Positions 2,305 through 39,465 of a DNA stretch of 42,822 bases are shown here, in pieces. Origin of the DNA: an uncultured Bacilli bacterium (lineage in GTDB: Bacteria > Bacillota_I > Bacilli_A > RF39 > UBA660); the NCBI GenBank assembly GCA_947629135.1, contig CANRCN010000003.1, forward strand, positions 1-42,822, read 5' to 3'. The notes beneath the pieces were generated by a model. It was given only the letters and a program-made list of their open reading frames with translations, did no database searches and was not told where the DNA came from. The position numbers and the translations under genes are program-made. Each line of letters opens with the position of its first letter. The first letter of the stretch is position 1.

Positions 2305-3409
2305 ATGGAATTAAATGAAATTAAATTAGAATTAAAAAATATTAAAGAAAAGCAAGAAGAATTATGGAGGTTACTTTGACATCTCTAAAAAAGAAAGTAG
2401 AATAGAAGAATTAGAAGAAATTACTAAAGATTCTAATTTTTGGCTTGATAAAAATAAAGTTCAAGAAACAATGGATGAATTAAATAATTTAAAAGATATT
2501 GTTCATAATAATAAAGAAATAAAAGATCAACTTGAGAATGATTTAGTTCTTTTAGAAATTTTAGAATTAGAACCTGATGTTAATACTCAAGAAGAGATAG
2601 AAAAAGATGTATCTATTTTAAATGATAAATTACAAGCTTTAGAAATGTTTACTTTATTAAATTCTGAATATGATAAGAATAATTGTATTTTAGAAATTCA
2701 TGCTGGTGCTGGAGGAACAGAAGCTTGTGACTGGGCTAGTATGTTATATAGAATGTATCAGAGATATATGGAAAGACATAATTTTAAATATGAGGTTATT
2801 TCTTATTTAGAAGGTGAAGAAACAGGTATAAAAAGTGCTTCTATGAAAGTTACGGGAATGTATGCTTATGGTTATTTAAAATGTGAAAAGGGAGTTCATA
2901 GATTAGTTAGATTATCTCCATTTGATGCTAATAATAAAAGACATACTTCTTTTGCCTCAGTTGATGTAACACCAGAATTTACTGAGGTTTCTGATATTGA
3001 AATTCAAGAGAAAGATTTAAAAATAGATGTATATAGGAGTAGTGGAGCAGGAGGACAGCATATTAATACAACTGATAGTGCAGTTAGAATAACTCATTTG
3101 CCTACAAAAATTGTTGTATCATGTCAAAATCAAAGAAGTCAGATTCAAAATAGAGAAGAAGCTCTTAATATGCTTAAAAGTAAATTAAAACAATTAAGTA
3201 TAGAAAAACAGGCTAAAACTTTGAATGATGTTAAAGGAGAAAGTTTAAATATAGAATTTGGATCTCAAATAAGAAGTTATGTAATGCATCCTTATTCAAT
3301 GATAAAAGATCATAGAACTAATTATGAAACAGCAAATGTAGGTAAAGTCTTAGATGGGGATTTAGATGAATTTATAAAAAGTGAATTAAAAAATAATGTT
3401 AGTAATTAA
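2305..3409 (+). CDS. prfB: Peptide chain release factor 2, with a programmed +1 frameshift at CTT-TGA-C (2374-2380)
   Basis: SD GAAAGGA plus ATG 2305; 24 codons then CTT TGA C preceded by internal SD GGAGG; the +1 frame joins the 2471..3409 ORF, which has SPF and GGQ motifs. Confidence 0.97.
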
Positions 3410-3446: not shown

Positions 3447-4031
3447 ATGAAAAAAATAAAAAAATATATTTATTTATTATTTGTTTTATTAGTTGCAGCC
3501 TTAAATTTTAATTTAATTTTAAAACCATTAAAGTTAGTAGTAGGAGGGACTCAGGGTGTTGCCGTTATTTTAAATCATTTATTCAAATTAAGTCCATCTT
3601 TTATTATCTTAATTATTAATGTTTTAATGTTAATTATTAGCTTTTTAACCTTAAAGAAAGAAACAACATTTGGAACAATTGAAGCAACTTTTATGTATCC
3701 AATTTTAGTTAAATTAACAAGTTTTATTCCTAATATCAAAGTTTCTAATGAATGGGTAATTATATTAGTAATATTAGCAGGTATTGTATGTGGAGTAACA
3801 GGAGGTTTAGTTTACAAGCTTGGTTTTTCAAATGGTGGTATAAGTGTTATACCTTTGTTAATTGAAAAATATTTTTCTATTCATGTTTACTTTTCAACTT
3901 TTGTTATTAATGGAATAATTGTTTTATTTGGAATAATTTACTTTGGAATTATAAAAGGCATTTATTCAATTATAATTATTTTATTACAAAGTTATTTAAT
4001 TAAGAAAGTATTAGGATTTAAAAGAAATTAA
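3447..4031 (+). CDS. YitT (DUF161) family membrane protein, without the usual C-terminal soluble domain
   Basis: LVVGGTQGVAVIL and GFSNGGISVI repeats; about 5-6 TM helices. Confidence 0.8.
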   Translation: MKKIKKYIYLLFVLLVAALNFNLILKPLKLVVGGTQGVAVILNHLFKLSPSFIILIINVLMLIISFLTLKKETTFGTIEATFMYPILVKLTSFIPNIKVSNEWVIILVILAGIVCGVTGGLVYKLGFSNGGISVIPLLIEKYFSIHVYFSTFVINGIIVLFGIIYFGIIKGIYSIIIILLQSYLIKKVLGFKRN

Positions 4032-4050
4032 TATAAAATAATTATTTTAT

Positions 4051-4079
4051 TTGAAAAAAAAGAGCAAACATATTATAAT
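4051..4079 (+). promoter_or_regulatory. Sigma-A promoter
   Basis: TTGAAA(4051-4056)-N17-TATAAT(4074-4079). Confidence 0.6.
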
Positions 4080-4118
4080 TAATTAATAAAGAATATATAT
4101 TATTATAAGGTGATGCTT

Positions 4119-4937
4119 ATGAAAAGAAAAACTTTAGCTGGTTATTTAATTGGATGTGTTTTAGCAATTTTATTAGTTTGTTATGTTTTATTATCAGTTA
4201 TTAGAACTACAATATTTAATGAAACTTATGTTAGAAAGATGTTTGATGAAAATAATTATTATAAGCTTATTTATAATAAAATTTTAGATAATATGGAAAT
4301 TTATCTTGAAAAATTTGATGTTCCTAAGGATATATTAGATAATATTTATACTGAGAATGAAGTTAAAAATGATATAGATAATATGATAGGAAGCATCTTT
4401 GAAAATGAAAAGTTTAAATATGATGAACAGATAATTGAAAATAGAATAAAAGGAAATATAAATAAATATATAGATGAATATAATGTTAAGCTAAATAATA
4501 TAGAAAAGTTTGTTAATGAAATAGTAAGTATTTATAAAAAAGGCATTAATGTTTTTAATGTAATTGAAAATTTTATTGATATATTTCAAAAAGTGGGAGG
4601 ATTACTTGGAATAATAACTACTTTATTGTTAGTTATGAGTGTAATTTTATTTATATCAATTATTTTAATTAAAGTAAAGTGTATTGGATTTACTAGTTTA
4701 TTAACTGGGATTATGTTATATATATTAAAATTTGGTTTATTTAAAGTAATAAATATTAATAAATTAAATATAATTACTAATGAATTAACTAAAGTAGTTA
4801 AAGATATTTTAGAAAAAATAAATAGTTTGTTAACAACTTATACAATTGTTTTTCTAATTTTAGGTATAATTTTTGTATTAATAGAGATATTAATAATAAT
4901 TAGAAATAGAGAGACTAAAAAGAAAATTAAAAACTAA
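4119..4937 (+). CDS. Hypothetical membrane protein (1 N-terminal TM, large helical loop, 3 C-terminal TM); paralog of 6202..7044
   Basis: Hydrophobicity pattern; shared TTI-NE...DENNYY block with the 6202 gene; SD AAGGTGA before ATG 4119 (track start 4110). Confidence 0.8.
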   Translation: MKRKTLAGYLIGCVLAILLVCYVLLSVIRTTIFNETYVRKMFDENNYYKLIYNKILDNMEIYLEKFDVPKDILDNIYTENEVKNDIDNMIGSIFENEKFKYDEQIIENRIKGNINKYIDEYNVKLNNIEKFVNEIVSIYKKGINVFNVIENFIDIFQKVGGLLGIITTLLLVMSVILFISIILIKVKCIGFTSLLTGIMLYILKFGLFKVININKLNIITNELTKVVKDILEKINSLLTTYTIVFLILGIIFVLIEILIIIRNRETKKKIKN

Positions 4938-4992
4938 TAATAAATTGTTTTACTCTTTTTTGGAAAGTATCGTAAAATAACAGAAAAAAATC

Positions 4993-5021
4993 TTGCATTT
5001 CAGAAAGTACTAAGATATAAT
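4993..5021 (+). promoter_or_regulatory. Sigma-A promoter of the sortase-substrate operon
   Basis: TTGCAT(4993-4998)-N17-TATAAT(5016-5021). Confidence 0.65.
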
Positions 5022-5043
5022 ATGTATTGAGAGGAGAAAAAGT

Positions 5044-5574
5044 ATGAAAAGATTCATGATGATGTTATTAGCAGTTCTTTTAGTATTTTTTGTTGTAAGT
5101 CCTGTAAGTGCTTTAACCGAAAGACAAGTTCTTGATAAGTTAGAGAAAACTTATACAATTAATGGAGCTGAATTTAAAATTTCACCAGCTTTAAAGAAAA
5201 TAATAGAAGATTATGCTAATGAATTTGAAGTTTCAAATGATGATTTAAATGCTATTGATCTTGCAATAAAAAATGCAGTTGAAATAGTAGAAAAAGACAA
5301 AGTAAAGAAAATTGAAGATCTTTCTTCAGCTGCAAAAGAAAGATTATTAGATTTACTTGCTGACTTCCGTGTTAATACTTCAATTAATGTTACTTATACT
5401 AATGGAGTATTGACTATTTACACTCCAGATGGAGAATTATTTGATAAAGTTACAGATTTAGTAAAACAAACTGGAACTGAAACAAATAGTATTGCTATTC
5501 TTGCTGGTGTATCATTTGTAGTTATGTTAGCAGGTGCATTTGTAGTAGTTAGAAAAGTAAGAGTTACTGACTAA
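5044..5574 (+). CDS. Secreted protein with an LPXTG-like sorting signal (VKQTG + TM + basic tail); putative sortase substrate
   Basis: Signal peptide ending VSA; C-terminal VKQTG, hydrophobic SIAILAGVSFVVMLAGAFVVV, then RKVR; strong SD GAGGAG. Confidence 0.75.
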   Translation: MKRFMMMLLAVLLVFFVVSPVSALTERQVLDKLEKTYTINGAEFKISPALKKIIEDYANEFEVSNDDLNAIDLAIKNAVEIVEKDKVKKIEDLSSAAKERLLDLLADFRVNTSINVTYTNGVLTIYTPDGELFDKVTDLVKQTGTETNSIAILAGVSFVVMLAGAFVVVRKVRVTD

Positions 5575-6209
5575 TGAATAAAATGAAATTTATAAAGACA
5601 TTTGCTACTAACGTAGCAATTTCTTTTTTCTTTGCAGCAATTTTTGTTTTTACGACTTATATGTTATTTGATAAGAAAATAAACTATTATACTTCACTTA
5701 TAAATTCAATTGCAATTAAACAATCAGATGATGTAGAAAATAAACAATCAGAATATAATCATACTTCTAAAAAAATAACTAATAGACCAAGATATGGTAA
5801 AAAATTTGCAACTTTAAAAATTCCTGAAATTGATATGAATTTACCTATTTATCATGGAGATACTCTTGATATTATGCGTTATGGGGTTGGGCATTATGGA
5901 GGTTCTTACTTTCCTGGTGAAGTTGGAACAATTATTTTAGCAGCTCATAATGATGTTGGTTTTTTTCATGAAATAGATAGATTAGTTGAAGGAAGTAAGA
6001 TTACAATTGAAGCTGATTATGGAACTTTTGAATATGAAGTTGATAGTTATAAGGTAGTTAATGAAACAGATTTAGATGCTTTTCAAATTCAAGAAGATAA
6101 AGAATTGTTAATAATGTATACTTGTTATCCAATAAGACATGGTGTTGTTGGAAGAAGAACTCAAAGATATATTGTCTATGCTAATAGAGTAGGTGATGAT
6201 AATGCATAG
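5574..6209 (+). CDS. Sortase, class D-like
   Basis: N-terminal TM; LKIPEI, GVGHY..S.FPGE, LAAHN (His), MYTCYP (Cys) and downstream R(Y)IV (Arg). Confidence 0.92.
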   Translation: MNKMKFIKTFATNVAISFFFAAIFVFTTYMLFDKKINYYTSLINSIAIKQSDDVENKQSEYNHTSKKITNRPRYGKKFATLKIPEIDMNLPIYHGDTLDIMRYGVGHYGGSYFPGEVGTIILAAHNDVGFFHEIDRLVEGSKITIEADYGTFEYEVDSYKVVNETDLDAFQIQEDKELLIMYTCYPIRHGVVGRRTQRYIVYANRVGDDNA

Positions 6210-7044
6210 AAAGACTCAAAGAATAATTAGTTATATATTAGGTTTCTTTTTGGTAATTTTTTTAGTACTATTAGCTATTTTAGCTATTCTTAAAACAACT
6301 ATTTTAAATGAAGTGGCTGTTAAGAAAGCTTTAGATGAAAATAATTATTATCAAATAATTACAGATAAAATATTTGAAAATATGAAAGATTATATGAGAT
6401 CATCTGGTTTAAATGTAGAAATTCTAAATGATTTGTTTACAGTTGAAGATGTTCGAAGTGATGTAAATAGATATCTTGATAAAATATATCAGGATAGTAA
6501 AATTGAGTTTGATGATACTAACTTAAAAGAAAAATTAACTAAGAACATAGAAATATCTTTAGAAAAACAAGATTTAAAAATAAATGATGAAGATGAAATT
6601 TCATCTTTTGTTACAGAAATGGTAAAGATTTATAAAAATGAAACAAATTTATACAATATAATAAATGGTTTCATTGAATCTATTCAGAAAGCAAATAATT
6701 TACTTAGCATTGTGGTTATTATTTTGTTAGTTATTTGTATAGCTTTAATTATTCCAATTGCTTGGATGAAAGTTAGATGTTTTGGTACAATTACTATAGC
6801 TGTTGGATTAATATTGTATTATATTAGATTTGCTATTTATGAAAAAATAGATTTTAAGAATATTCTTATTTTATCTAAAGAGTTTTCAGTAGTATTAACT
6901 TGGTTATTAACTAAAATTGCTAATTATATAGCTATATATGCGAGTGTTATAGTTGTAATAGGGTTAGTAATTGTTATTGTTGAGTCTTATATAACAATGA
7001 AGAAAAAAAGAAGGATACATCATCGAAGAAGTTTAGAAATATAA
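6202..7044 (+). CDS. Hypothetical membrane protein; paralog of 4119..4937
   Basis: Same topology and DENNYY block; start overlaps the sortase 3' end; SD AGGTGA before ATG 6202 (track start 6193). Confidence 0.8.
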   Translation: MHRKTQRIISYILGFFLVIFLVLLAILAILKTTILNEVAVKKALDENNYYQIITDKIFENMKDYMRSSGLNVEILNDLFTVEDVRSDVNRYLDKIYQDSKIEFDDTNLKEKLTKNIEISLEKQDLKINDEDEISSFVTEMVKIYKNETNLYNIINGFIESIQKANNLLSIVVIILLVICIALIIPIAWMKVRCFGTITIAVGLILYYIRFAIYEKIDFKNILILSKEFSVVLTWLLTKIANYIAIYASVIVVIGLVIVIVESYITMKKKRRIHHRRSLEI

Positions 7045-7055
7045 ATGTGTTTAAG

Positions 7056-7083
7056 AAAAGGAAAGTAAAAAAATCCTTTTTTT
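7056..7083 (+). terminator. Probable terminator of the sortase operon
   Basis: AAAAGGA...TCCTTTT followed by a T tract. Confidence 0.5.
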
Positions 7084-7143
7084 AGTATATAAAAATATTT
7101 AAAAATATGTTATACTATTAAAGATTTTAAAGAGGTGAATAGT

Positions 7144-9954
7144 ATGGATAAGATTGTAATAAAGGGTGCTAGAGAAAATAATTTAAAAAATATTAATTTA
7201 GAGTTACCTAAAAATAAATTAATTGTTATGACTGGATTATCTGGAAGTGGAAAAAGTAGTTTAGCATTTGATACTATCTATGCTGAAGGTGAAAGAAGAT
7301 ATGTTGAAAGTTTATCAGCTTATGCTAGACAGTTTTTAGGCGGTTCTGAGAAGCCTGATGTTGATAGTATTGAAGGTTTATCTCCAAGTATTTCAATTGA
7401 TCAAAAAACAACAAGTAAGAATCCTCGTTCTACAGTTGGAACAGTTACAGAAATTTATGATTATTTAAGACTTTTATTTTCAAGAATTGGAGTTCCATAT
7501 TGTCCTAATCACCACATTCCAATTAAGAGTCAATCAGTTGAAGAAATAGTTAATAAAGTTTTAGAATTTCCTGAGGGTACTAAGTTAATTATTTTATCAC
7601 CTGTTGTTGAAAGTGAAAAAGGAACACATAAAGATATACTTGATAATTTGAGAAAAGAAGGATACATCAGAGTTCGGATAAATGGAGAGATGGTTGATAA
7701 TACAGAAGAAATTACTTTAGAAAAAAATAAAAAAGATAAGATTGATGTTGTAATTGATAGAATTATTATTAAAGCTGGAATTAGAAGTAGATTGTATGAA
7801 TCAATTGAGGCTGCAACAAATCTTTCTAAGGGTAAGGTTTTAGTAAATATTCTTGGTGGTGAAGAAATTTTATTTTCAACTACTTATGCTTGTCCTTATT
7901 GTAATTATTCCATTAGTGAAGTTGAACCTCGAATCTTTAGTTTTAATGCTCCTTATGGCGCTTGTCCTGAATGTAAAGGACTTGGAGTCAAGTTAAAAAT
8001 AGATGTTGATTTAGTAATTCCTGATGATAGTTTAAGTTTGAATAATAAATGTATTAAAACTTTAAATGATGATCAAGATTCAATTGAATATAAAAGACTT
8101 AAAGCTGTATGTGATTATTATAAAATAGATATGGATAAACCTTTTCGGAAATTAAGTAAGAAAGAACAAGATATTATTCTTTATGGTTCTCCAGATATTC
8201 TAACTTTTAATATTACAAGTAGAAGTGGAAATGTTACTAAGAATAAAGATTATTTTGAAGGAGTAATTAATAATCTTGAAAGAAGATATATGGATACATC
8301 AAGTGAATGGATTAGAGATTGGCTTGAGCAATATATGATTGAACTTCCATGTGAAGTATGTCATGGAGCTAGATTAAATGATAGTGTTTTGAATATATTA
8401 ATTCATGATAAAAATATTTATGATGTTACTTGTATGTCAATTAAGGAAGCAATTACTTGGTTTGATAATTTAAAGTTAAGTAATGAAGAAATGAAAATTT
8501 CAGAATTGGTTATAAAAGAGATAAAAAATAGATTAAATTTCTTAAAGAATGTTGGACTTGAATATTTGACAATGTCTAGAATGAGTGGAACTTTATCTGG
8601 AGGAGAGGCTCAAAGAATTAGATTAGCAACTCAAATTGGTTCTAGATTAACAGGTGTTTTATATGTTTTAGATGAACCTAGTATTGGACTTCATCAGAAG
8701 GATAATGAAAAGTTAATTAATTCTCTCCTTGAAATGCGAGATTTGGGAAATACTTTAATTGTTGTTGAACATGATACAGATACGATGCTTGCAAGTGACT
8801 ATCTAGTTGATATAGGACCTGGAGCAGGAGATGCAGGTGGATATGTAGTTGCAGCAGGAACACCTGATGAGGTAATGAAAAATGATAATAGTATAACTGG
8901 TCGTTATTTAAGTGGAAAAGAATGTATTATGGTTCCAGAAAAAAGAAGAAAAGGTAATGGTAAACATATTGAAATTAAAGGAGCTAGTGAAAATAATTTA
9001 AAAGATATTGATGTTAAGTTTCCACTTGGAACATTCACTTGTGTTACAGGAGTATCTGGAAGTGGAAAAAGTAGTTTAGTTATGCAAATTCTTGCCAATG
9101 CTTGTATGAATCATATTTATAAATCAAAAGTTAAACCAGGTTCTCATAAAAAAATACTAGGTCTTAATAATTTAGATAAAGTAGTTATAATCACTCAAAA
9201 TCCAATTGGTAGAACCCCAAGAAGTAATCCAGCAACTTATACTGGAGTATTTGATGATATTAGAGATTTATTCACGAATACTAAGGAAGCAAAAATGCTT
9301 GGATATGGCAAGAATAGATTTTCATTTAATGTTAAAGGTGGAAGATGTGAAGCTTGTAGAGGCGATGGGGTAAAGAAGATTGAAATGCACTTTTTACCTG
9401 ATGTATATATACCTTGTGAAGTATGTCATGGTAGTCGTTACAATAGTGAAACTTTATCAATTAAGTATAAAGATAAGAATATTGCTGAAGTTTTAGATAT
9501 GCGAGTAACAGAAGCTTTAAAGTTTTTTGAGAATTTTCCAAAGATTAAAAACAAACTTCAAGTTATGGAAGATGTTGGACTTGGTTATGTTAAATTAGGT
9601 CAAAGTGCAACAACCTTATCTGGAGGGGAAGCAGGAAGAGTTAAGCTTTCTAAAGAACTTCAAAAGAAAGCTACAGGAAAGACCTTATTCATTTTAGATG
9701 AACCAACCACTGGTCTTCATAGTGCTGATATTAAAAGACTTTTAGCAATTCTTAATAGGATTGTTGATAATGGAGATACGGTTTTAGTTATTGAACATAA
9801 TCTTGACGTTATTAAATCAGCTGACTATATAATTGATTTAGGACCTGATGGAGGAGATGGTGGTGGAATGATAGTTGCCAAAGGTACTCCAGAAGAGGTT
9901 TCTAAAGTTAAAGAAAGTTATACTGGTGAATTTTTAAAAAAGATTTTAAATTAG
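7144..9954 (+). CDS. uvrA: Excinuclease ABC subunit A
   Basis: Two Walker A motifs (GLSGSGKS, GVSGSGKS), LSGGE signatures and Zn-finger CxxC pairs; SD GAGGTGA before ATG 7144 (track start 7135). Confidence 0.98.
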   Translation: MDKIVIKGARENNLKNINLELPKNKLIVMTGLSGSGKSSLAFDTIYAEGERRYVESLSAYARQFLGGSEKPDVDSIEGLSPSISIDQKTTSKNPRSTVGTVTEIYDYLRLLFSRIGVPYCPNHHIPIKSQSVEEIVNKVLEFPEGTKLIILSPVVESEKGTHKDILDNLRKEGYIRVRINGEMVDNTEEITLEKNKKDKIDVVIDRIIIKAGIRSRLYESIEAATNLSKGKVLVNILGGEEILFSTTYACPYCNYSISEVEPRIFSFNAPYGACPECKGLGVKLKIDVDLVIPDDSLSLNNKCIKTLNDDQDSIEYKRLKAVCDYYKIDMDKPFRKLSKKEQDIILYGSPDILTFNITSRSGNVTKNKDYFEGVINNLERRYMDTSSEWIRDWLEQYMIELPCEVCHGARLNDSVLNILIHDKNIYDVTCMSIKEAITWFDNLKLSNEEMKISELVIKEIKNRLNFLKNVGLEYLTMSRMSGTLSGGEAQRIRLATQIGSRLTGVLYVLDEPSIGLHQKDNEKLINSLLEMRDLGNTLIVVEHDTDTMLASDYLVDIGPGAGDAGGYVVAAGTPDEVMKNDNSITGRYLSGKECIMVPEKRRKGNGKHIEIKGASENNLKDIDVKFPLGTFTCVTGVSGSGKSSLVMQILANACMNHIYKSKVKPGSHKKILGLNNLDKVVIITQNPIGRTPRSNPATYTGVFDDIRDLFTNTKEAKMLGYGKNRFSFNVKGGRCEACRGDGVKKIEMHFLPDVYIPCEVCHGSRYNSETLSIKYKDKNIAEVLDMRVTEALKFFENFPKIKNKLQVMEDVGLGYVKLGQSATTLSGGEAGRVKLSKELQKKATGKTLFILDEPTTGLHSADIKRLLAILNRIVDNGDTVLVIEHNLDVIKSADYIIDLGPDGGDGGGMIVAKGTPEEVSKVKESYTGEFLKKILN

Positions 9955-9977
9955 TAACACAGGTTGCTAATTTTTTT
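9949..9977 (+). terminator. Intrinsic terminator after uvrA
   Basis: AATTAGTAAC-acag-GTTGCTAATT plus T7. Confidence 0.65.
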
Positions 9978-9997
9978 ATCCACATTTTTGTGGATAA
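9976..9997. promoter_or_regulatory. Inverted pair of perfect DnaA boxes
   Basis: TTATCCACA(9976-9984)-tttt-TGTGGATAA(9989-9997). Confidence 0.6.
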
Positions 9998-10007
9998 AAA
10001 TTAATGT

Positions 10008-10036
10008 TTGTAAAATCCTAATAATTGTTATATACT
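10008..10036 (+). promoter_or_regulatory. Sigma-A promoter of lgt-trxB-whiA
   Basis: TTGTAA(10008-10013)-N17-TATACT(10031-10036). Confidence 0.6.
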
Positions 10037-10052
10037 ATTGGTAGGTGAGATT

Positions 10053-10859
10053 ATGAATAGAGTGGCCATTGACTTGGGGTTTGTTCAAATATATTGGTAT
10101 TCAATCACCATATTATGTGGGGTTATTTTAGGCGGAACTATTTCCTATTTAGAATTAAAACGTTTAAAAAAAGATACCAAATTTTTTCTTGATATGCTTT
10201 TTTATGTTATTCTGTTTGGATTTATAGGAGCAAGACTTTATTATGTTCTTTTTAATCTGGATTATTATTTAGCAAATCCAAGTGAGATAATTGCTGTTTG
10301 GAATGGAGGACTTGCAATACATGGTGGAATAATAGGAGGAGTTTTAACTATTATTGTTTATAGCCGTATTCATAAGAAAAAGATATTGGATGTTGTTAGT
10401 TATATAGATGCATCAACCTTAGGCCTTATTTTGGGTCAAATAATTGGTAGATGGGGGAATTTCTTTAATGGAGAAGCTCATGGAGGGGCTACAACTAAAG
10501 CTTTTTTAGAAAGTATTCATATACCAGATTTTATAATTCAGGGAATGACAATTGAAGGAATTGTATATCATCCAACTTTTCTTTATGAATCCTTATTAAA
10601 TTTAATAGGTTTAATTATTTTATTAATTGTTAGAAAATTTAAAAAACTTAAAGTTGGTATGTTACTTTCTATTTATTTAATGTGGTATGCTGTTGTTAGA
10701 TTCTTTATTGAAAGTATGAGAACAGATAGTTTAATGTTTGGAAATCTAAAGATGGCTCAGATAATCTCTATTGTTTTCTTTATAGTAGGATTAATTGGTT
10801 TTATTATAAGTTTAGTTAAAAGTGTTAATTACAATAAGGAGAGTGATAAAAATGTATGA
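10053..10859 (+). CDS. lgt: Prolipoprotein diacylglyceryl transferase
   Basis: IGARLYYV, GGLAIHGG, GRWGNFFNGEAHG, HPTFLYES and RFFIE motifs (track start 10038). Confidence 0.97.
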   Translation: MNRVAIDLGFVQIYWYSITILCGVILGGTISYLELKRLKKDTKFFLDMLFYVILFGFIGARLYYVLFNLDYYLANPSEIIAVWNGGLAIHGGIIGGVLTIIVYSRIHKKKILDVVSYIDASTLGLILGQIIGRWGNFFNGEAHGGATTKAFLESIHIPDFIIQGMTIEGIVYHPTFLYESLLNLIGLIILLIVRKFKKLKVGMLLSIYLMWYAVVRFFIESMRTDSLMFGNLKMAQIISIVFFIVGLIGFIISLVKSVNYNKESDKNV

Positions 10860-12784: not shown

Positions 12785-13336
12785 ATGAATTGGGTATATA
12801 TTATTTTAGGAATAGTTGTATTATTATTAATTTATGTATTTGTAACTTATAATAGTTTAATTAAAGTAAGAAACAAAGTGGAAGAAGCTTTTTCAACAAT
12901 GGATGTTTATTTAAAGAAAAGATGGGATTTGATTCCAAATATAGTTGAAACTGTAAAAGGTTATGCTAAGCATGAAAAGGATACTTTAAATGAGATAGTA
13001 GAACTTCGAAATGGAGTTTATGAAAAGATGAATACAAGTGATAAAGTAGAAGTTAATAACAAATTATCTCAAAATATTACAAAGTTAATGGCTATAGCAG
13101 AAGCATATCCAGATTTAAAAGCTAGTGAAAACTTTAAAGATTTAAGTGGACAGCTTGCCAAAGTTGAAGAAGATATTGCAAATGCTAGAAAGTATTATAA
13201 TGGAGCAGTTAGAATTATGAATGATAAAGTACAAATGTTTCCTAGTAATTTAATAGCTTCAATGTTAGGATTTAAAAAACAACCAATGTTTGAAGTAACT
13301 GAAGCTGAAAGAGAAAATGTTAAAGTTGAATTTTAA
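12785..13336 (+). CDS. lemA: LemA family protein
   Basis: N-terminal TM, YNSL, KRWDLIPNIVETVKGY, EAYPDLKA and FPSNLIA motifs. Confidence 0.95.
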   Translation: MNWVYIILGIVVLLLIYVFVTYNSLIKVRNKVEEAFSTMDVYLKKRWDLIPNIVETVKGYAKHEKDTLNEIVELRNGVYEKMNTSDKVEVNNKLSQNITKLMAIAEAYPDLKASENFKDLSGQLAKVEEDIANARKYYNGAVRIMNDKVQMFPSNLIASMLGFKKQPMFEVTEAERENVKVEF

Positions 13337-13350
13337 GAAAAGGAGGGACT

Positions 13351-15114
13351 ATGATAAAAATATTTAAAAAGTCTCTTGTTTTCTTTTGTTTAGTATTTTT
13401 ATTATCTTGTTTAAATGTTAAGGCTTATGCTAATTATACAATTGATAAATTTGATATTGATATTAAAGTGAATGAAAATAATACTTATGAAATTAAAGAA
13501 ATAATTGATGTTAATTTTAAAGCTTCTGTTAAAGAATTTAATATAACAATACCTCGTAGTAATTATATAGATAATAAAATTAAAAGTAAAGTTAAAATAA
13601 CTAATTTAAAAGTAAATGATACATATGAATTGATAAATAATAAAGATAATTATCAAATAAAACTAGGTGAAGCTATAGAAGGAAAGAAACAATATATAAT
13701 TAGTTATACTTATGAGGTTTCTTATAATAATAGTATATATAATAAATTTGAAGGATTTTATTATAATTTAGTTGGGCAAGATTGGGATGCTTTAATATAT
13801 AACGTTGATTTTAAAGTTAGTTTACCAAATAATTATAGTGATTATAATGTTTCCTTTAAAAGTAAAGAAATAGTTCAATCGGATGAAGATAAATTTAAAT
13901 ATGAAATAAAAGATAATGTTATAACAGGTACTTCTACTAAGATATTTGCAGGAGATTTAATTTTAATAATTTCTTTACCAGTAAAACTTGCTTCTAATGA
14001 TTTAACTAAATTATGTATGTTAGTATTTTTTATTCCAATTATTTGTTTAGGAATTGCAATATTAATATGGTATAAAAAAGGAAAAGATGAAATAATAGAA
14101 ACAGTTGAATTTTATCCACCAAAAGAAATTAATAGTTTAGAAATGGGATTTTTAAATGATGGATTGGTTGATGAAAAAAATGTTTTATCACTTTTAATTT
14201 ATTTAGCAAATAAGGGTTATTTAAAGATAAAAGAAGAGAATGATGACTATAAATTTATAAAATTGAAGGAATATGATGGTAACAAAAAAGAAGAAAAAAT
14301 GTTTTTAGATGCTTTATTTGAAAAATCTCATAAGAATGAAGAAGAATTCGTTTATAAAAGTGAATTAGATACAGATTTTTCTTATAGAATAAAAGAGATA
14401 ATAAATAGTATGCATAGTAGAGCTAATTATAGAAAAATATATGAAAGAACAACATTTTGGCATTTCATAACAGTACTACTTTATATAATTTCGATTATAG
14501 CAACAGTTTTTCCTTTAATGAATATAATAGAATTTACTATTTTTGGATTTGATGAAATAAAATATATGGAAAATATTTTATTTATTATAATTGGTATTGC
14601 TATTGGTACTAGAATAATATGTATAGAAAATTTACTTCCTAAAGTAAGAAATATTTTTCTAATAATTGGGATAGGAATTTTTATGATTATATTTTTCAAT
14701 TTATATGAAATTTTGTTATATAATTCTTTTGTTATAATAGTATTTATAGTTGGTTTAATATCATCTATAGGAATAATCATTTGTTATTCATATCTTGATA
14801 AAAGAACAGAAGAGGCTTCTAAAATGGTAGGTAGAATCAGAGGATTCAAACGATTTTTAGAGACTGTAGAAAGAGATAGATTAGAAAGTTTATTAAACGA
14901 TGATCCTGATTATTTTTTTAAGATATTACCTTATGCTTATGTACTTGAATTATCTGATAAATGGATTAAAGACTTTGAAGACATTGTACTTCCTGAGTCT
15001 CCTCAATCTAAAGAGTTTGATATTTATGAAATTTTATTAGATGATTGTATGCCTAGTTTAATTTCACTTGTTGCAATTGCAGGAATATCACTTTTTAATA
15101 TAATTAAAAAGTGA
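13351..15114 (+). CDS. DUF2207 family membrane protein (copy 1, no Gly-rich tail)
   Basis: Signal peptide, YYNLVG.DW, VEFYPP, LIYLANKGY, GFKRFL and LPYAYVL motifs. Confidence 0.88.
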   Translation: MIKIFKKSLVFFCLVFLLSCLNVKAYANYTIDKFDIDIKVNENNTYEIKEIIDVNFKASVKEFNITIPRSNYIDNKIKSKVKITNLKVNDTYELINNKDNYQIKLGEAIEGKKQYIISYTYEVSYNNSIYNKFEGFYYNLVGQDWDALIYNVDFKVSLPNNYSDYNVSFKSKEIVQSDEDKFKYEIKDNVITGTSTKIFAGDLILIISLPVKLASNDLTKLCMLVFFIPIICLGIAILIWYKKGKDEIIETVEFYPPKEINSLEMGFLNDGLVDEKNVLSLLIYLANKGYLKIKEENDDYKFIKLKEYDGNKKEEKMFLDALFEKSHKNEEEFVYKSELDTDFSYRIKEIINSMHSRANYRKIYERTTFWHFITVLLYIISIIATVFPLMNIIEFTIFGFDEIKYMENILFIIIGIAIGTRIICIENLLPKVRNIFLIIGIGIFMIIFFNLYEILLYNSFVIIVFIVGLISSIGIIICYSYLDKRTEEASKMVGRIRGFKRFLETVERDRLESLLNDDPDYFFKILPYAYVLELSDKWIKDFEDIVLPESPQSKEFDIYEILLDDCMPSLISLVAIAGISLFNIIKK

Positions 15115-15131
15115 TTATAAAGGAGGGGTAA

Positions 15132-17024
15132 ATGAATTTATTTAAAAAAATAGTATTTGTATTTGTCTTGCTATTTTTTATATCTACTTACAATGTTAAA
15201 GCTCTTACAGGCTATACAATTGATAAGTTTGATATTGATATTAAAGTAAATAAAGATAATACTTTTGATATTAAAGAGACTATTACGGCTAATTTTAGTG
15301 TTCCAAAACATGGTATATTTTTAACAATTCCTTTAAGGAATGAAGTAAAAAGGGAAGATCGAACTAGTTATAAAAATAAAGCTATTATTACTAAGGTAAA
15401 AGTAAATGAAAAGTTTACTACTAGTAGAGAAAATGGAAATTATAAAATAAAAATAGGTTCTGATAACAAAACTTTAACTGGTTTAAAAGAATATATAATT
15501 AGTTATCATTATAATATAGGTAATGATAAAACAAATAAGTTTGATGAACTTTATTATAATTTAATTGGAATTGATTGGGATACTGATATTTCTAATATAA
15601 CTTTTAAAATTAGTATGCCAAAAGAATTTGATGAATCTAAATTAGGATTTTCAGCAGGGAGATATGGTGAAAGTGGAACGTCAGATATTACCTATCAAGT
15701 AGATGGAAACGTTATAACTGGAACATTTAATAGGATTTTATATCAAGGAGAAACAATAACAGTAAGACTCGAATTACCTGATGGATACTTTGAAAAACAA
15801 AAAGTTAATATAATTGATTATTTGATTTATTTAATTCCAATTATCTTTCTTGTAGTATCTATTCTTCTTTGGTATTTGTATGGTAGAGATGATCAAGTTA
15901 TTGAAACAGTTGAATTTTATCCTCCAAAAGGAAAAAATAGTTTGGAAGTAGGCTTTTTATATAAAGGAAAAGCTATTCAAGAAGATGTTACATCTTTATT
16001 AATCTATCTTGCTAACAAAGGATATGTTAAGATTGAAGAAGAAGGTAAGAAAGGTTTTAAAATTATTAAAATAAAAGAATATGATGGTAAAAATGAAGAA
16101 GAAAAAGAATTTTTAGAGGGTTTATTTAAAAAATCTAGTAAAACTAAAGATGGTATAGAGTTTGTAACTGATGATGATTTATATGATAGTTTTTATGTAA
16201 CTATGAATAAAATTTTAAAAAGTATTAATTCTAAGGAAAATAAAAATAGTATATTTGAAAAATCTGCATCAAATAAATCTTTTATAATTATTTTAATGAT
16301 AATTGCAACCTTTTGTATAATTACTATTCCTCCTTTTATAAAGTATGAAGAAATAGATATTATAATGTTTGCTCTTTTATTTCCTGGAATAGGATTTACT
16401 ATAATGCTTCAATCTTTTATTTGGGATAACTCACTTTATATAAATGGACAAGCTATTAATTCTAAAATTGCAGCAAGAATATTCGGAGTTATCTTTGGCT
16501 TACTATTTGGAGGTTTTCCTTTTATAGTTATGGTTTTACCAGTACTATCTCAAGAATTAATTTATTTAATTATGTATATAGTTGGTATTATATGTGTATT
16601 TGGAATGTTAATTTCTTTAAAATATTTGCCAAGAAGAACACCTTATGGAAATGAAGTATTGGGAAAACTTAAAGGTTTTAAAACTTTCTTAGAAACAGCT
16701 GAAAAAGAAAGATTAGAAGCTATGGTAAAAGATAATCCAACGTATTTCTATGATATTTTACCATTTACATATGTTCTTGGGGTATCTAAGACTTGGATTA
16801 AGAAATTTGAAGCAATTAATATAGAAGCTCCTACTTGGTATTATGGATCAGATACTTTTGATATAATTATGTTTAATAGATTTATGAATAATACAATGAA
16901 AGTTGCATCTAAAAGTATGACATCTAGTCCTAGTAGTTCTTCAGGTGGATTTTCTGGTGGAGGCTTCTCAGGAGGTGGATTTTCTGGTGGAGGCTCTGGC
17001 GGTGGAGGCGGAGGCTCTTGGTAA
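15132..17024 (+). CDS. DUF2207 family membrane protein (copy 2, canonical SSSGGFSGGG...GSW tail)
   Basis: Same motifs as copy 1 plus the Gly/Ser-rich C-terminus. Confidence 0.92.
   Translation: MNLFKKIVFVFVLLFFISTYNVKALTGYTIDKFDIDIKVNKDNTFDIKETITANFSVPKHGIFLTIPLRNEVKREDRTSYKNKAIITKVKVNEKFTTSRENGNYKIKIGSDNKTLTGLKEYIISYHYNIGNDKTNKFDELYYNLIGIDWDTDISNITFKISMPKEFDESKLGFSAGRYGESGTSDITYQVDGNVITGTFNRILYQGETITVRLELPDGYFEKQKVNIIDYLIYLIPIIFLVVSILLWYLYGRDDQVIETVEFYPPKGKNSLEVGFLYKGKAIQEDVTSLLIYLANKGYVKIEEEGKKGFKIIKIKEYDGKNEEEKEFLEGLFKKSSKTKDGIEFVTDDDLYDSFYVTMNKILKSINSKENKNSIFEKSASNKSFIIILMIIATFCIITIPPFIKYEEIDIIMFALLFPGIGFTIMLQSFIWDNSLYINGQAINSKIAARIFGVIFGLLFGGFPFIVMVLPVLSQELIYLIMYIVGIICVFGMLISLKYLPRRTPYGNEVLGKLKGFKTFLETAEKERLEAMVKDNPTYFYDILPFTYVLGVSKTWIKKFEAINIEAPTWYYGSDTFDIIMFNRFMNNTMKVASKSMTSSPSSSSGGFSGGGFSGGGFSGGGSGGGGGGSW
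16941..17021 (+). repeat. Gly/Ser-coding tandem repeats (SGGGF units)
   Basis: GGTGGATTTTCTGGTGGAGGCT occurs twice within the tail. Confidence 0.7.
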
Positions 17025-17915: not shown

Positions 17916-19460
17916 ATGTTTGATACTTTTTATATTGATTTAGATATTTTAAATAATGAAACAAGAAGGATATTTGATTATCATGATTTAGAAGAATTTA
18001 TTATTAATAAAGAAATTTTAGTTTATATTATTAATAACAAAGATATGTTATTAAAATTAATGGATATTATGTTAGATAAGACTAAATATTCTATTAAATT
18101 AGAAATAAAAAATAGAGAATCAAGTATTACTATTAGTAAGATGAGTTTGTTTCAAGAATTAATGAAAATAATTGAAGAAGATAATATTAAAATAGATAGA
18201 GAAGTATCTATAAAATTAAGTAATGTTTTTAGAAATACTAATTATAATGTTTCTGATATTAAACATGAAGTAATAATTGATAATGTTAAAGAAATCTATC
18301 CTGTTAATTTATTCTTTGAATTTTTATACTTAGATAAATTAAACTATAAATTAATAAGTAATATTAATATATTTAGGGGTTATGAACTTAGTCATTTTGT
18401 ATATGCTTTAATGGATTATTTAAAAAAGAATCATATTTTAGATTTATATGATTTTAATAGTGAAGTAATAGAAAAAATAAAAGATTTAGCAAGTATGCAA
18501 TTTGTTGATTATGAAGCATTTAATAAATATCAAGATACGGTTGATAATAATTTAAATTCAATAAAAATTAATAAAGAATTAGAAAGTATTTTAGATAAAG
18601 AAATGGAAAATGGTAAAGATACTTTTGATAAACTAATGAAAGTTTATTTAAAATTAGGTTCTTTATTTAGTTATGATATTAAGTTCTTTTTAGGAGAATA
18701 TACTCTTCATAAAAAAATAAAAAATATTTCTAAACTTAATCTTAGAAATAATAAAACTGTTTGTTTTGAAATGTATGGGATTCTTGCTTATTATTTAAAG
18801 AAATTAAATATTAATTATAAAGTTTATCCAGAAGATTATAAATATGGTTCTGACCATCCTTATATAGTATTTAGATATAATGAATATTTAATAAAAATAG
18901 ATTTAGTTAAAAGTACTCTTACATCAGATTTAATTAATATTAAATTAAATGATAATTTAAATGGTATTACTTGTATTAATAAGAATGAACAAACAAGATT
19001 ATCTTTTAATAATTTTTTAAATAGATATTATAAGAGAAAATTCTTTGATTATGAAGAGGTTATGTTACCTAGAACTAGATTTATATATGATAATCCTATT
19101 AATGATAACATTAAAGAATTATTAAGATATATTGATTTAGCTTATGCAAGAGTAAATGATGATTTAGATGTAATGGATAAAATGGGTATATTTTTATCAA
19201 GTTTAAAACAATTAAAAAATAAATATTATTTAGATAATATGGATATGCAAGTTGTTAGAGATTATAATAATAAATATGGTATTTCTATGTTAATATCTTT
19301 ATATGATGGTAATGATTACATGTATGTTTTATATGATTTAGATTATTTACAGATATTTAATAGAAAAGATATGAAAGAAATATTTGAAAATGCTAATATT
19401 ACTAGATTACAAGAGAAAGATATACCTGGGTTAGATAATAAAAAAATGATTACAAAATGA
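17916..19460 (+). CDS. Hypothetical protein with a putative transglutaminase-like/papain-like catalytic core
   Basis: VCFEMYGILAYYLKKLNI ... DHPYIVF ... IKIDL gives Cys-His-Asp in the typical spacing. Confidence 0.55.
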   Translation: MFDTFYIDLDILNNETRRIFDYHDLEEFIINKEILVYIINNKDMLLKLMDIMLDKTKYSIKLEIKNRESSITISKMSLFQELMKIIEEDNIKIDREVSIKLSNVFRNTNYNVSDIKHEVIIDNVKEIYPVNLFFEFLYLDKLNYKLISNINIFRGYELSHFVYALMDYLKKNHILDLYDFNSEVIEKIKDLASMQFVDYEAFNKYQDTVDNNLNSIKINKELESILDKEMENGKDTFDKLMKVYLKLGSLFSYDIKFFLGEYTLHKKIKNISKLNLRNNKTVCFEMYGILAYYLKKLNINYKVYPEDYKYGSDHPYIVFRYNEYLIKIDLVKSTLTSDLINIKLNDNLNGITCINKNEQTRLSFNNFLNRYYKRKFFDYEEVMLPRTRFIYDNPINDNIKELLRYIDLAYARVNDDLDVMDKMGIFLSSLKQLKNKYYLDNMDMQVVRDYNNKYGISMLISLYDGNDYMYVLYDLDYLQIFNRKDMKEIFENANITRLQEKDIPGLDNKKMITK

Positions 19461-20190: not shown

Positions 20191-20934
20191 ATGTTAACAG
20201 TTCAAAGAACTTATTATAAGAATTTTAATGTAGAAGAAAAAGAAGAATTAAAAAATTTATTAAAAAGATATGGTGATACTCTTAATAAACCAACTTTAGA
20301 ATATTTAAATGCTTTAATAGAGTTGGAGTTTTCAGTAATTAAAGATAATATTAGCAGTTCTAAGAAAGAAAATTTAATAGAATTAGAACTTTATAGAAGA
20401 ATAGCAATTTATAATATTTATAATAGAGTGTTAAATTTATTGAAATCACATGAAGGACTTGATATACATAGTAATAGTGGTGGATATGAAGGAATTTATG
20501 TAACTAGAAAGTTAGAAGATGATAGTACTTTAGAAGTTTTTAATTTTGATTATGATATAAATAGAAGTAGAGTAGGTAAAATTGATTTTTATGAAACTAG
20601 AGAAAAGACTTTAGATGAAAGAATGGCTGAAATAAATTATGCTAAAGGTGCTATAGAAAGAATAAGTAATGAAAAAAGTAATAATACTAATGATTTAGAA
20701 GCAATTGAATTAGACCGTAAGAGAAGAATAGAACATTATGAGAATATGTTAAAAGAGTTAGAAAGAGAAAGAACATTAAGTGATATAGATAAGAAAAAAA
20801 TAGAGTTTAGTAGATATTATTTAGAATTATTATTAGATGAATTTGGATTAACTAGAGAAGATTTAACAGATAATAAATTACTTGTTAAAAGGATGCCTAG
20901 ATTAACTATTAAAAACAATATTGAATGTTTATAG
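20191..20934 (+). CDS. Hypothetical soluble protein with a coiled-coil-like segment
   Basis: 247-aa ORF; own promoter TTGATT(20138)-N17-TATAAT(20161) and terminator at about 20933-20957. Confidence 0.75.
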   Translation: MLTVQRTYYKNFNVEEKEELKNLLKRYGDTLNKPTLEYLNALIELEFSVIKDNISSSKKENLIELELYRRIAIYNIYNRVLNLLKSHEGLDIHSNSGGYEGIYVTRKLEDDSTLEVFNFDYDINRSRVGKIDFYETREKTLDERMAEINYAKGAIERISNEKSNNTNDLEAIELDRKRRIEHYENMLKELERERTLSDIDKKKIEFSRYYLELLLDEFGLTREDLTDNKLLVKRMPRLTIKNNIECL

Positions 20935-23930: not shown

Positions 23931-24494
23931 ATGCTAGATGCAATTATATCTTTATTTCGTGACTTTTTAAGTGGAACACGTTATATTATATATGTATTGA
24001 TATGTTTAACTTTACTATTCGCAATTGTTGGATATATGTTTAAACAAAAGTATGGAAAAGTTGAGTTTAAAATGTCTACAGGTAAACCTGCAGATGATCA
24101 AGAAAAAGTTCCAACAGCTTCTCCAAAAGATAAAAAAGTTAAGAAATCTAAAAAGGAAAAAAAGAGTAAAAATGAAACTAAGCAAGTTGCCCCAACACCT
24201 CAAGCTACACCAAACGTGGCAGCAGCTCAAAAACCAGCTGTTCAAACTCCACAACCTGTACTTCAATTAGCTAAGGTTCCACTTCAACAATCAGCAACAC
24301 CAGCAACTTCAAGTCCAAATGTTTCAAAAGCAACTTCAATTCAAGAGCCAACACCAGTTGCTAAACCTCCTGTTCAAGTAGCTCAAAGTCAACCTCAAAC
24401 TGGAACTTTACAACAACCAACTGCTATACCAGATTTTGGACAGAAAAAAACTGGTAATCCAGTTATAGATGATGATATAACAACAATTATTTAA
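23931..24494 (+). CDS. Single-TM protein with Lys-rich then Pro/Gln/Thr/Ala-rich disordered region
   Basis: N-terminal hydrophobic helix, low-complexity body, terminator at 24493-24515. Confidence 0.75.
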   Translation: MLDAIISLFRDFLSGTRYIIYVLICLTLLFAIVGYMFKQKYGKVEFKMSTGKPADDQEKVPTASPKDKKVKKSKKEKKSKNETKQVAPTPQATPNVAAAQKPAVQTPQPVLQLAKVPLQQSATPATSSPNVSKATSIQEPTPVAKPPVQVAQSQPQTGTLQQPTAIPDFGQKKTGNPVIDDDITTII

Positions 24495-29460: not shown

Positions 29461-30105
29461 ATGAATTTGGATTGTTATAATGATATTATAAAGCAAAACT
29501 TTGAGATAACAAGTTATAATCAATTTAATTATAATGAATACTTTACAAAAACATTTATATATAATTTTTTAAAGAAAAAGTTTCCTAATATGAGAAGAGT
29601 TTTAGAACCAAGATCTCCAAGAAGTTATGAAAATGATGGAAAAATTTATTCTGTAAAAAATGTTGCTAGAGGAAGAGTTGTAATTGAAACTAATGATGGA
29701 CAATATGTAAGTAAACTTATATTTAGTCCTGAAAATCCTTATTCACCAATTAGTTATACTATTAATGAAAAAGGACTTATTGTTGAAAAACATGATTATT
29801 ATGGTGTTGAGAGATGCACAATTGAATATTATGATCGAGCAGCAACAGATTTTATTTTAAATGGTGTAGATGCAAATATGTTTTTAGAAGGAATTGTTGA
29901 AGGAAAAATTAGCCTTGAAAGAATTTTAAATGATGAGAGTCTTAATCCAGATGCAAAAATGAGAATAAAAAGAGTTGCTGGAGATAAGTTTGCTTTGGTG
30001 GATACAGAAAATAATGCTATATCTGAATGTGATTCACCTTATTTACCTGGTTCAGAAATAGAAGAATGTGTTGATAGTATGGTAGAACATAGTAAAATAA
30101 GATAA
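29461..30105 (+). CDS. Hypothetical soluble protein
   Basis: 214-aa ORF; own promoter TTGACT(29410)-N17-TATACT(29433), SD AAAGGAG and terminator at about 30115-30141. Confidence 0.75.
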   Translation: MNLDCYNDIIKQNFEITSYNQFNYNEYFTKTFIYNFLKKKFPNMRRVLEPRSPRSYENDGKIYSVKNVARGRVVIETNDGQYVSKLIFSPENPYSPISYTINEKGLIVEKHDYYGVERCTIEYYDRAATDFILNGVDANMFLEGIVEGKISLERILNDESLNPDAKMRIKRVAGDKFALVDTENNAISECDSPYLPGSEIEECVDSMVEHSKIR

Positions 30106-39417: not shown

Positions 39418-39465
39418 ATTGATAATTTTTCTTGTTTGTGTTATTCTTTAAATGGAGGTAATAAT

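Follow-up and report, generated by a model that had tools for sequence, protein, structure and literature searches.

A window of 42,822 nucleotides (nt) of DNA from an uncultured Bacilli bacterium (positions 1 to 42,822 of contig CANRCN010000003.1, assembly GCA_947629135.1) was found to encode, in immediate succession, a small secreted protein with a sorting signal, a sortase, and a membrane protein with four transmembrane (TM) helices, here designated memB. Comparison with related loci indicates that substrate, sortase and memB are the conserved unit, and that memA, a memB paralogue encoded upstream of them, stands outside it. The locus is best explained, with a probability that we place at roughly 0.55, as a dedicated sortase-substrate module in which memB is a new membrane partner of the sortase. 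A dedicated sortase with its own substrate is a known kind of module; what is unusual is a signal without Leu-Pro and a candidate 4-TM partner drawn from a large unnamed family. An initial annotation of this DNA had described a VKQTG-bearing substrate and a class D-like sortase bracketed by two paralogous membrane proteins, which it took for acceptors, scaffolds or chaperones; all of the sequence features and coordinates that it gave were found, including the gene overlaps at either end of the sortase gene.

Layout and conservation of the module

The window has a G+C content of approximately 24% and carries nearly all of its genes on the + strand. A block of four genes, memA, substrate, sortase and memB, lies between a YitT-family gene (3447-4031) and uvrA (7135-9954), the names uvrA, lgt, trxB and whiA having been assigned by eye only. 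The block comprises the following features, given with the evidence for each (ORF, open reading frame; AF2, AlphaFold2).

4051..4079, + strand: promoter-like site (TTGAAA, 17 nt, TATAAT) 5' of memA, with 11/12 matches the best of the region
4110..4937, + strand: memA, 275 amino acids, 4-TM membrane protein, a lineage-specific paralogue of memB (ORF, BLASTP, hydropathy)
4993..5021, + strand: conserved promoter-like element preceding the substrate gene, with (C)TTGCAT at 4993-4998, 17-nt spacer, TATAAT at 5016-5021 (cross-locus alignment)
5029..5036, + strand: strong ribosome-binding site of the substrate gene, GAGAGGAG (invariant in six aligned loci)
5044..5574, + strand: sortase substrate, 176 amino acids, with a signal peptide (residues 1-23) and an acidic mature body (residues 24-143) (ORF, TIGR01167, alignment, model)
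5461-5475, + strand: sorting motif VKQTG of the substrate, residues 140-144
5491-5550, + strand: TM helix of the substrate, residues 150-169
5551-5571, + strand: basic tail of the substrate, RKVRVTD
5574..6209, + strand: sortase, 211 amino acids (PF04203, TIGR01076)
5602..5629, + strand: hairpin (7-bp stem, loop TAAC) and T-run within the first sortase codons (terminator-like-site scan)
5613-5669, + strand: N-terminal TM helix of the sortase, residues 14-32
5946-5948, 6123-6125 and 6165-6167, + strand: catalytic residues of the sortase, His125, Cys184 (in YTCYP) and Arg198, respectively
6193..7044, + strand: memB, 283 amino acids, 4-TM, with a helical ectodomain of ~120 residues between TM1 and TM2 (ORF, hydropathy, AF2)

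The stop codon of the substrate gene (TAA, 5572-5574) and the ATG of the sortase gene have base 5574 in common (TAATG), and the sortase stop codon (TAG, 6207-6209) falls within memB for either of the two memB starts (GTG 6193 or ATG 6202). The likely start is the ATG at 6202, which is better placed and is preceded by AGGTGA; for memA, the likely real start is the ATG at 4119, preceded by AAGGTGA.

A word-index search with memB retrieved 16 proteins, from which a profile was derived and carried into a scan of genome contigs, where 186 pattern matches yielded seven confirmed loci (L001-L007). Four of these are labelled as uncultured Bacilli, one (L004) as Muribaculaceae and two (L006 and L007) as Clostridia; together with the window they form the eight loci considered here, six of which (the window and L001-L005) have the Bacilli-type gene order. 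A PF04203 sortase gene was located immediately upstream of memB in all eight loci, the two genes overlapping in the six Bacilli-type loci and being separated by ~20 nt in L006 and L007. The substrate gene precedes the sortase gene in the window, L001, L002, L003, L006 and L007, and follows memB in L004 and L005, that of L004 being in two pieces split by a run of Ns. Searches of the 398 stop-to-stop ORFs of the eight loci with hidden Markov models returned exactly one substrate, one module sortase and one memB per locus, and a sorting-signal-like tail was carried only by the substrate ORF of each locus, the N-masked copy of L004 being missed. Two further short contigs (5,568 and 6,112 nt) also appear to hold memB and a substrate gene, as judged from matching sizes in both searches.

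Relative to the window, the proteins of the Clostridia-labelled loci were 30-33% (substrate), 40% (sortase) and 28-29% (memB) identical, and because adjacency persists at such low identity, the linkage between sortase, memB and substrate is considered to be old. The proposal of a dedicated module, with a membrane protein family tied to the sortase, was borne out in all eight loci, including the two labelled as Clostridia. The gene order of L004 (dus, RDD, prfB, YitT, sortase, memB, substrate) is that of low-GC Bacilli metagenome-assembled genomes, and its contig has probably been mis-binned or mislabelled as Muribaculaceae.

The second membrane protein fared differently. memA and memB are paralogues as first described, sharing 34% identity over 250 amino acids (BLASTP, E = 1e-46), and the hydropathy scan gives each of them one N-terminal TM helix, a loop of ~130 amino acids and three further TM helices, an arrangement also seen in the structure model of memB; the basic N- and C-termini of the two proteins fit a cytoplasm-in topology. 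The family profile matched memA at E = 5.9e-71, memA itself being a row of the source alignment (A2). Yet memA was present in only two of the seven assessable loci (the window and L002) and was absent beside the module in L003-L007, whilst L001 could not be assessed, its contig ending 152 nt upstream of the substrate gene. In phylogenetic analyses, memA of the window and of L002, together with family member P0017, was sister to the memB of the same lineage, with a FastTree support of 0.96 (111 sequences) and a UFBoot value of 100 in an IQ-TREE analysis of 35 of these 111 membrane proteins. On this sequence evidence memA is a lineage-specific, recent duplicate of memB, and because of this restriction to one lineage and to two of seven loci, bracketing by two paralogues is attributed to local duplication and not to the conserved system, so that co-occurrence was found for sortase, substrate and memB together (8/8 loci) and not for memA.

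The substrate, its signal and the sortase

The signal peptide of the substrate ends at VSA, with Leu as the first residue of a mature part of 120 amino acids that has an isoelectric point of 4.63 and contains 23 Asp and Glu residues versus 16 Lys and Arg residues. The C-terminus is tripartite, consisting of the pentapeptide VKQTG, a hydrophobic helix (hydrophobic stretch at residues 150-168) and the basic tail RKVRVTD, and scored 19.6 bits against the LPXTG_anchor model TIGR01167, above the cut-off of 15.9; 13 of the 15 substrate family members matched this model at E <= 0.01. The pentapeptide was VKQTG in 12 of the 15 aligned substrates and VKNTG, VQQTG and AQQTG in one each, giving a consensus of [V/A][K/Q][Q/N]TG in 15/15, with T143 and G144 invariant. 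Neither Leu nor Pro occurred at the first two positions in any of the 15 substrates. The T-G pair stands at a constant distance from the TM helix across these proteins, the bodies of which diverge to 30% identity. A motif without Leu-Pro, noted initially for the window protein, is hence a conserved property of the family. One of the 15 substrates (E = 0.0033) weakly touched the NCBIfam model NF058571 (GVDTG_CTERM), and a full-text search of the literature for VKQTG, VQQTG, AQQTG, QTGTE and QQTGS signals found nothing relevant.

The features first attributed to the substrate, namely a signal peptide, an acidic body and VKQTG, were retained, but a purely helical body was not, as the model (mean predicted local distance difference test score, pLDDT, 60.5; core 70-79; moderate confidence) combines helices with two beta hairpins or sheets. 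Foldseek comparison of this model with the PDB gave no matches at E <= 0.001, a PDB profile search gave nothing significant, and the top ESM Atlas score of 0.78 was uninformative. Neither a YPKN motif in the translation nor an Ig-like fold in the model was observed, in agreement with the initial annotation. Lys98 is one of only two mature-body residues that are invariant in the 15 substrates, in a body with 13 lysines per 120 residues.

Both Leu and Pro, which sortases normally read, are missing from the signal, and it could accordingly be supposed that it goes unprocessed, the small protein simply staying in the membrane by its C-terminal anchor while the sortase acts on substrates encoded elsewhere. 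A precedent is NVQTG, which has been proposed as the signal of Clostridioides difficile CbpA (PMC4155245, PMC5118464; the papers cited by PMC number here and below are represented by excerpts) and which was not cleaved in vitro by the C. difficile sortase SrtB (PMC4155245). Against such a role speak the invariance of T-G and its fixed distance to the TM helix in 15 proteins with bodies down to 30% identical, the strict linkage to a sortase in 8/8 loci, the score of the tail above the TIGR01167 cut-off, and the QTG[ST] part of the signal, which matches the LPQTGS preferred by Clostridium perfringens SrtD in the excerpt of PMC4498605. We consider an unprocessed signal to be very improbable.

The sortase itself was identified with PF04203 (96.3 bits versus a cut-off of 26.6, E = 1.4e-27) and with the generic model TIGR01076 (93.4 bits, above the cut-off of 39.35). 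It scored below the cut-off of every class model, the class D models scoring best: SrtD NF058671 121.4 bits (cut-off 140), class D NF033746 106.4 (165), class C NF033745 93.9 (160) and class E NF033747 72.5 (160). Its description as class D-like is thus appropriate in the sense of the nearest class by score, but does not extend to membership, NF058671 and NF033746 both remaining below cut-off; furthermore, the [V/A][K/Q][Q/N]TG found in 15/15 substrates is unlike the class D signals LPxTA and LPxTATN (PMC8225981 and NCBIfam). A word-index search retrieved 227 homologues at E <= 1e-10, and among the 120 that were listed most were of ~209 amino acids and 52-61% identical. The catalytic residues His125, Cys184 (YTCYP) and Arg198 were invariant in an alignment of 50 sortases. 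The mean frequency of the top residue in the sortase was 0.66 for the TM helix, 0.74 for the catalytic domain and 0.50 for the linker, and the conservation of the TM helix, nearly that of the catalytic domain, fits a specific contact within the membrane.

The nearest solved structures were 6ixz and 7d6p, deposited as 'Sortase family protein' (E ~3e-16, 2.5e-16 at best), which we take to be a pilus-type class C enzyme of C. perfringens. They were followed by 8t28 (class C, E = 3e-15), 4d7w (8e-14), 4d70 (3e-13) and 2ln7 (2.5e-11). Class C sortases possess a lid with a DP[F/W/Y] motif and a C-terminal TM anchor, and their pilin substrates are Ig-like with a YPKN-type lysine motif. No DPF, DPW or DPY was present in the translation of the module sortase, of which residues 14-32 form the sole hydrophobic segment, leaving it with no C-terminal TM anchor.

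Pilus-like assembly, in which Thr143 would be joined to Lys98 of the next substrate to form a small non-Ig polymer on a memB platform, must be weighed in this context. It would account for the invariance of Lys98 and agrees with the matches to 6ixz, 7d6p and 8t28, and the substrate gene's own promoter and possible attenuator (described below) could yield surplus substrate, as would be expected of a major subunit. The absence of a YPKN-type motif, of an Ig-like fold, of the DP[FWY] lid and of a C-terminal TM anchor stands opposed to it, as does a class C score (NF033745) of 93.9 against a cut-off of 160, and in a body so rich in lysine a single invariant one is weak evidence. Such a polymer is judged to be improbable.

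The hidden Markov model searches also detected a second, distant sortase in L001 and L002. In L001 its gene (5265-5912; PF04203, E = 1.3e-27) is present between uvrA and lgt. L002 has a shorter ORF at this position (9875-10609), possibly a decayed one, and the window has none there (9955-10037). In a tree of 127 sortases rooted on the second L001 sortase, the window and L006 span only 13 tips, and for that reason parsimony gives no grounds for assuming the linkage to memB in the other sortases of ~209 amino acids, which number more than 100.

memB and its relationship to the sortase

Profile searching at 50% clustering identified 1,757 representatives of the memB family at E <= 0.001, 1,018 at E <= 1e-10 and 350 at E <= 1e-30, with nearly all of the best 150 being full-length (~265-290 amino acids). 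Neither memA nor memB had a Pfam match. The commonest Pfam match among 103 family members was DUF2207_C, which matched seven of them weakly (E >= 3e-4), and no NCBIfam model matched more than two of the 103. A LemA gene followed by two tandem DUF2207 membrane-protein paralogues (587 and 630 amino acids) is located at 12785-17024 of the window; kinship of memB to DUF2207 was rejected after hhalign against the window's own DUF2207 protein returned a probability of 0.2. Searches of memB against PDB profiles (best E = 0.034) and, by tblastn, against the plasmids of PLSDB (no match) were negative, and in the ESM Atlas its nearest neighbours were 'hypothetical protein' clusters of the Bacillota (0.97). 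Scans of six long or extended family members revealed no sortase fusion, and the long members P0070 and P0153 had low-complexity tails only, without a fused domain.

An AlphaFold2 model of memB, built from the 103-sequence alignment, was all-helical (pLDDT 94.8; predicted template-modelling score 0.87), with TM1 at residues 6-35, a helical ectodomain at 40-151, TM2 at 158-191, TM3 at 197-218, and TM4 with a cytoplasmic helix at 229-282. Foldseek found no match to this model in the PDB at E <= 0.001. Bacillus cereus Lit (7b0o_A) was considered as a fold relative and discarded as not significant (template-modelling scores 0.43/0.54, root-mean-square deviation 11.6 Å, E = 2.1). The view that the membrane partner is undescribed was upheld, in that neither a Pfam or NCBIfam family nor a publication or solved structure describing memB was found. 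Tyr52, Tyr53, Gly72, Tyr99, Ile119, Tyr147 and Ser232 are nearly invariant in the family; invariant polar or catalytic residues are lacking, as is a recognisable catalytic set, and this fits a scaffold better than an enzyme.

A direct association of memB with the sortase was assessed by complex prediction, a check suggested with the initial annotation. The median score was 0.46 (runs of 0.43, 0.46 and 0.48), graded 'weak support', and the best of three controls scored 0.00; at least 64% of contacts agreed between runs, and the pLDDT of the partner was at least 75. The pass mark is reached by 116 of 157 solved complexes and by 2 of 215 mismatched pairs, and scores of 0.60 or below comprise 18 of those 157 complexes together with both passing mismatches, counts that hold only roughly here because our own alignments were used. 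The score modestly raises the odds that sortase and memB bind one another, for which the prior was already favourable given the coupled genes in 8/8 loci and the conserved TM helix.

The preferred reading of these data, in which memB is a partner of a dedicated sortase, may be set out as follows. The substrate would be transcribed from its own conserved promoter, translated from a strong ribosome-binding site, exported by the Sec pathway and held in the membrane by its [V/A][K/Q][Q/N]TG motif, TM helix and basic tail. The membrane-anchored sortase, through His125, Cys184 and Arg198, would cleave between Thr143 and Gly144 and pass the substrate to an amine nucleophile, by default lipid II or the peptidoglycan cross-bridge, leaving it anchored to the wall. 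memB, translationally coupled to the sortase gene, would accompany the sortase in the membrane without being an enzyme itself, stabilising or positioning it, or presenting the substrate or the nucleophile.

Several observations weigh against this reading. The linkage was seen in eight loci and two clades, compared with 1,757 representatives of the memB family at E <= 0.001. Two of the best 150 representatives (P0105 and P0163) have VanZ, and not a sortase, fused at the C-terminus. The gene following memB encodes an LCP protein in L006 and a VanZ protein in L007, and is succeeded in both by a sugar-transferase gene. The complex score falls in a weak range, in which passing pairs are wrong more often than right if the pairing was not already probable, and the failure of CbpA to be cleaved, noted above, bears on the signal. 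No mur or penicillin-binding protein (PBP) genes were detected when the ORFs of the window were compared with Pfam, 42.8 kb being too little to judge the presence of a wall, and in the excerpt of PMC10868615 the related uncultured Bacilli orders include both walled and predicted wall-less ones.

Given the few loci, the VanZ fusions, and the LCP or VanZ and sugar-transferase neighbours, memB may instead be a general envelope protein. memB and memA would then merely neighbour the sortase, acting for instance with VanZ or LCP proteins on lipid-II-linked or glycopolymer processes, and would be dispensable to the sortase and its substrate. The neighbouring genes themselves (L006, 6986-8966; L007, 6839-8356) hint at lipid-II or wall-polymer processes. 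What this explanation does not readily accommodate is the fixed sortase-memB order in 8/8 loci, with overlap in six and persistence at 28-29% memB identity, to which the complex score (0.46 versus 0.00 for controls, weak support as it is) and the conserved TM helix of the sortase may be added. We regard it as unlikely.

A further alternative takes up the view, put forward in the initial annotation, of the membrane proteins as acceptors: a lysine in the ectodomain of memB or memA, or some other acceptor that is not peptidoglycan, would receive the substrate in place of the wall. The ectodomain is lysine-rich (13-15 Lys in the loop), and the wall-less members of related lineages and the want of mur/PBP genes within the window are compatible with it. 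No lysine, however, is invariant among the 103 memB family members, the most conserved positions being K166 (Lys in 75%) and K88 (70%), and because of this nothing was gained for the acceptor idea. Clostridia-labelled loci with spore-formation and wall-polymer genes (SpoIIIAH, LCP) carry the module as well, and the relative L005 encodes at 635-1063 a small secreted LysM protein (PF01476, E = 2.6e-10), the only hint that the lineage has peptidoglycan. Ligation to such an acceptor is thus highly improbable.

An extension of the preferred reading, which we hold to be doubtful, is that memB-family proteins are obligate membrane co-factors that define a new sortase class, the enzyme reading [V/A][K/Q]QTG without Leu-Pro and memB being, in a two-component sortase, the subunit that confers specificity or presents the acceptor. 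memB might in that case hand over the nucleophile, the VanZ fusions and neighbours hinting at lipid II, or might enable recognition of the signal. The usual view of sortases is that they act on their own and recognise LPXTG-like signals. Were a 4-TM partner needed, a function would be gained for a large family of Bacillota hypothetical proteins, a second sortase membrane partner would be added besides, and unrelated to, the actinobacterial SafA discussed below, and the recognition of a signal without Leu-Pro might be explained. Pattern searches for LPXTG, NPQTN or SPxTG would miss such substrates in gut Bacilli and Clostridia. The practical weight of the finding is moderate, as it is computational and concerns uncultured gut commensals.

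Expression signals, neighbouring genes and known systems

The number of promoter-like sites in 3900-7250 was 27, compared with a mean of 30.5 in shuffled sequences, and because this does not exceed the shuffles the site upstream of memA is treated as a lead only. The element upstream of the substrate gene, in contrast, is common to 6/6 Bacilli-type loci, and consists of (C)TTGC(A/T)T, 17 nt, TATAAT and then GAGAGGAG (window 4993-5036). Its CTTG, -10 hexamer and spacing are invariant in the six loci, also where the gene has moved downstream of memB. That this element was unlisted in the scan for promoter-like sites is due to its -35 element matching TTGACA in only three of six positions.

Two terminator-like sites were found (one palindrome, counted on both strands) where 0.2 were expected. 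The corresponding hairpin at 5602-5629, at the start of the sortase gene, is kept in L001-L003, the window's own z of -1.67 being modest, and a different 12-bp stem occupies the same place in L006 (~5396-5425) and L007 (~5398-5427), with z of -5.6 and -6.2, respectively. A comparable hairpin was absent from the two loci that have the substrate gene downstream of memB (L004 and L005). Partial termination behind the substrate gene is one possible function of the hairpin, and stabilisation of the mRNA at its 3' end is another; promoter, ribosome-binding site and hairpin together suggest, at the level of sequence, a higher output of substrate than of sortase and memB. Rfam returned no matches either in 3900-7300 at E <= 1 or in the whole window at the gathering score, and hence no riboswitch, including none of the cyclic di-GMP type that controls C. 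difficile sortase substrates.

Elsewhere in the window, prfB (release factor 2, 2306-3409) contains the canonical programmed +1 frameshift site, CTT TGA C, at ~2373-2379 with GGAGG before it, from which it follows that TGA is read as a stop codon in this organism (standard code 11). A gene of the choloylglycine (bile-salt) hydrolase family at 39436-40440 (PF02275, E = 2e-107) fits a gut habitat. Four ORFs of 187-514 amino acids (17916-19460, 20191-20934, 23931-24494 and 29461-30105) had no Pfam match at E <= 0.01.

A search of the literature on dedicated and VanZ-associated sortases found no description of this three-part module, though several known systems share a part of it. Among solved structures, class C sortases (6ixz/7d6p and 8t28) score best (E = 2.5e-16 to 3e-15); they are likewise encoded beside their substrates, but the module differs from them in having no lid motif, C-terminal TM anchor, pilin-type substrate or second pilin gene.

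The C. perfringens SrtD system (4d70/4d7w; PMC4498605) resembles the module in pairing, within an operon, one dedicated sortase with one small 'hypothetical cell-wall anchor protein'. Its signal, LPQTGS, shares Q-T-G-[S/T] with that of the module, which has V/A and K/Q in place of Leu-Pro. The available excerpt of PMC4498605 mentions no memB-type gene in the SrtD operon, and the module sortase does not reach the class D cut-offs of NCBIfam.

Bacillus anthracis SrtC (class D, 2ln7, E = 2.5e-11; PMC8225981), with BasH and BasI, is similarly a specialised sortase with very few dedicated substrates, which are anchored to the wall cross-bridge, and class D is the nearest NCBIfam class of the module sortase by score. 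It is distinguished by an LPNTA signal, as opposed to xxQTG, by its role in sporulation, and by the lack of a described 4-TM partner in the excerpt of that paper.

As regards the signal, the nearest counterparts are NVQTG of C. difficile CbpA (PMC4155245, PMC5118464) and GVDTG (NF058571), each of which is a five-residue xxxTG that lacks Leu-Pro and stands ahead of a TM helix and a basic tail. The Q-T-G of the module recurs in NVQTG, which, according to the excerpts, is left uncleaved in vitro by the only sortase of C. difficile, whereas the module encodes a sortase beside its substrate.

The membrane partner finds its closest parallel in the actinobacterial SafA-SrtA pair (PMC9282373), in which the gene directly following that of the sortase encodes a membrane protein that binds the sortase and controls its membrane homeostasis. 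The initial remark that no sortase system with such obligate membrane partners was known is consequently outdated. According to the excerpt, SafA is a small protein that spans the membrane, bears an FPW motif on its exoplasmic side and acts with a class E housekeeping sortase, and this description sets it apart from memB, with its 283 amino acids, four TM helices, helical ectodomain and lack of FPW. SafA is nevertheless the only described sortase-partner membrane protein that was found, and the memB gene, likewise, is situated immediately downstream of its sortase gene in 8/8 loci.

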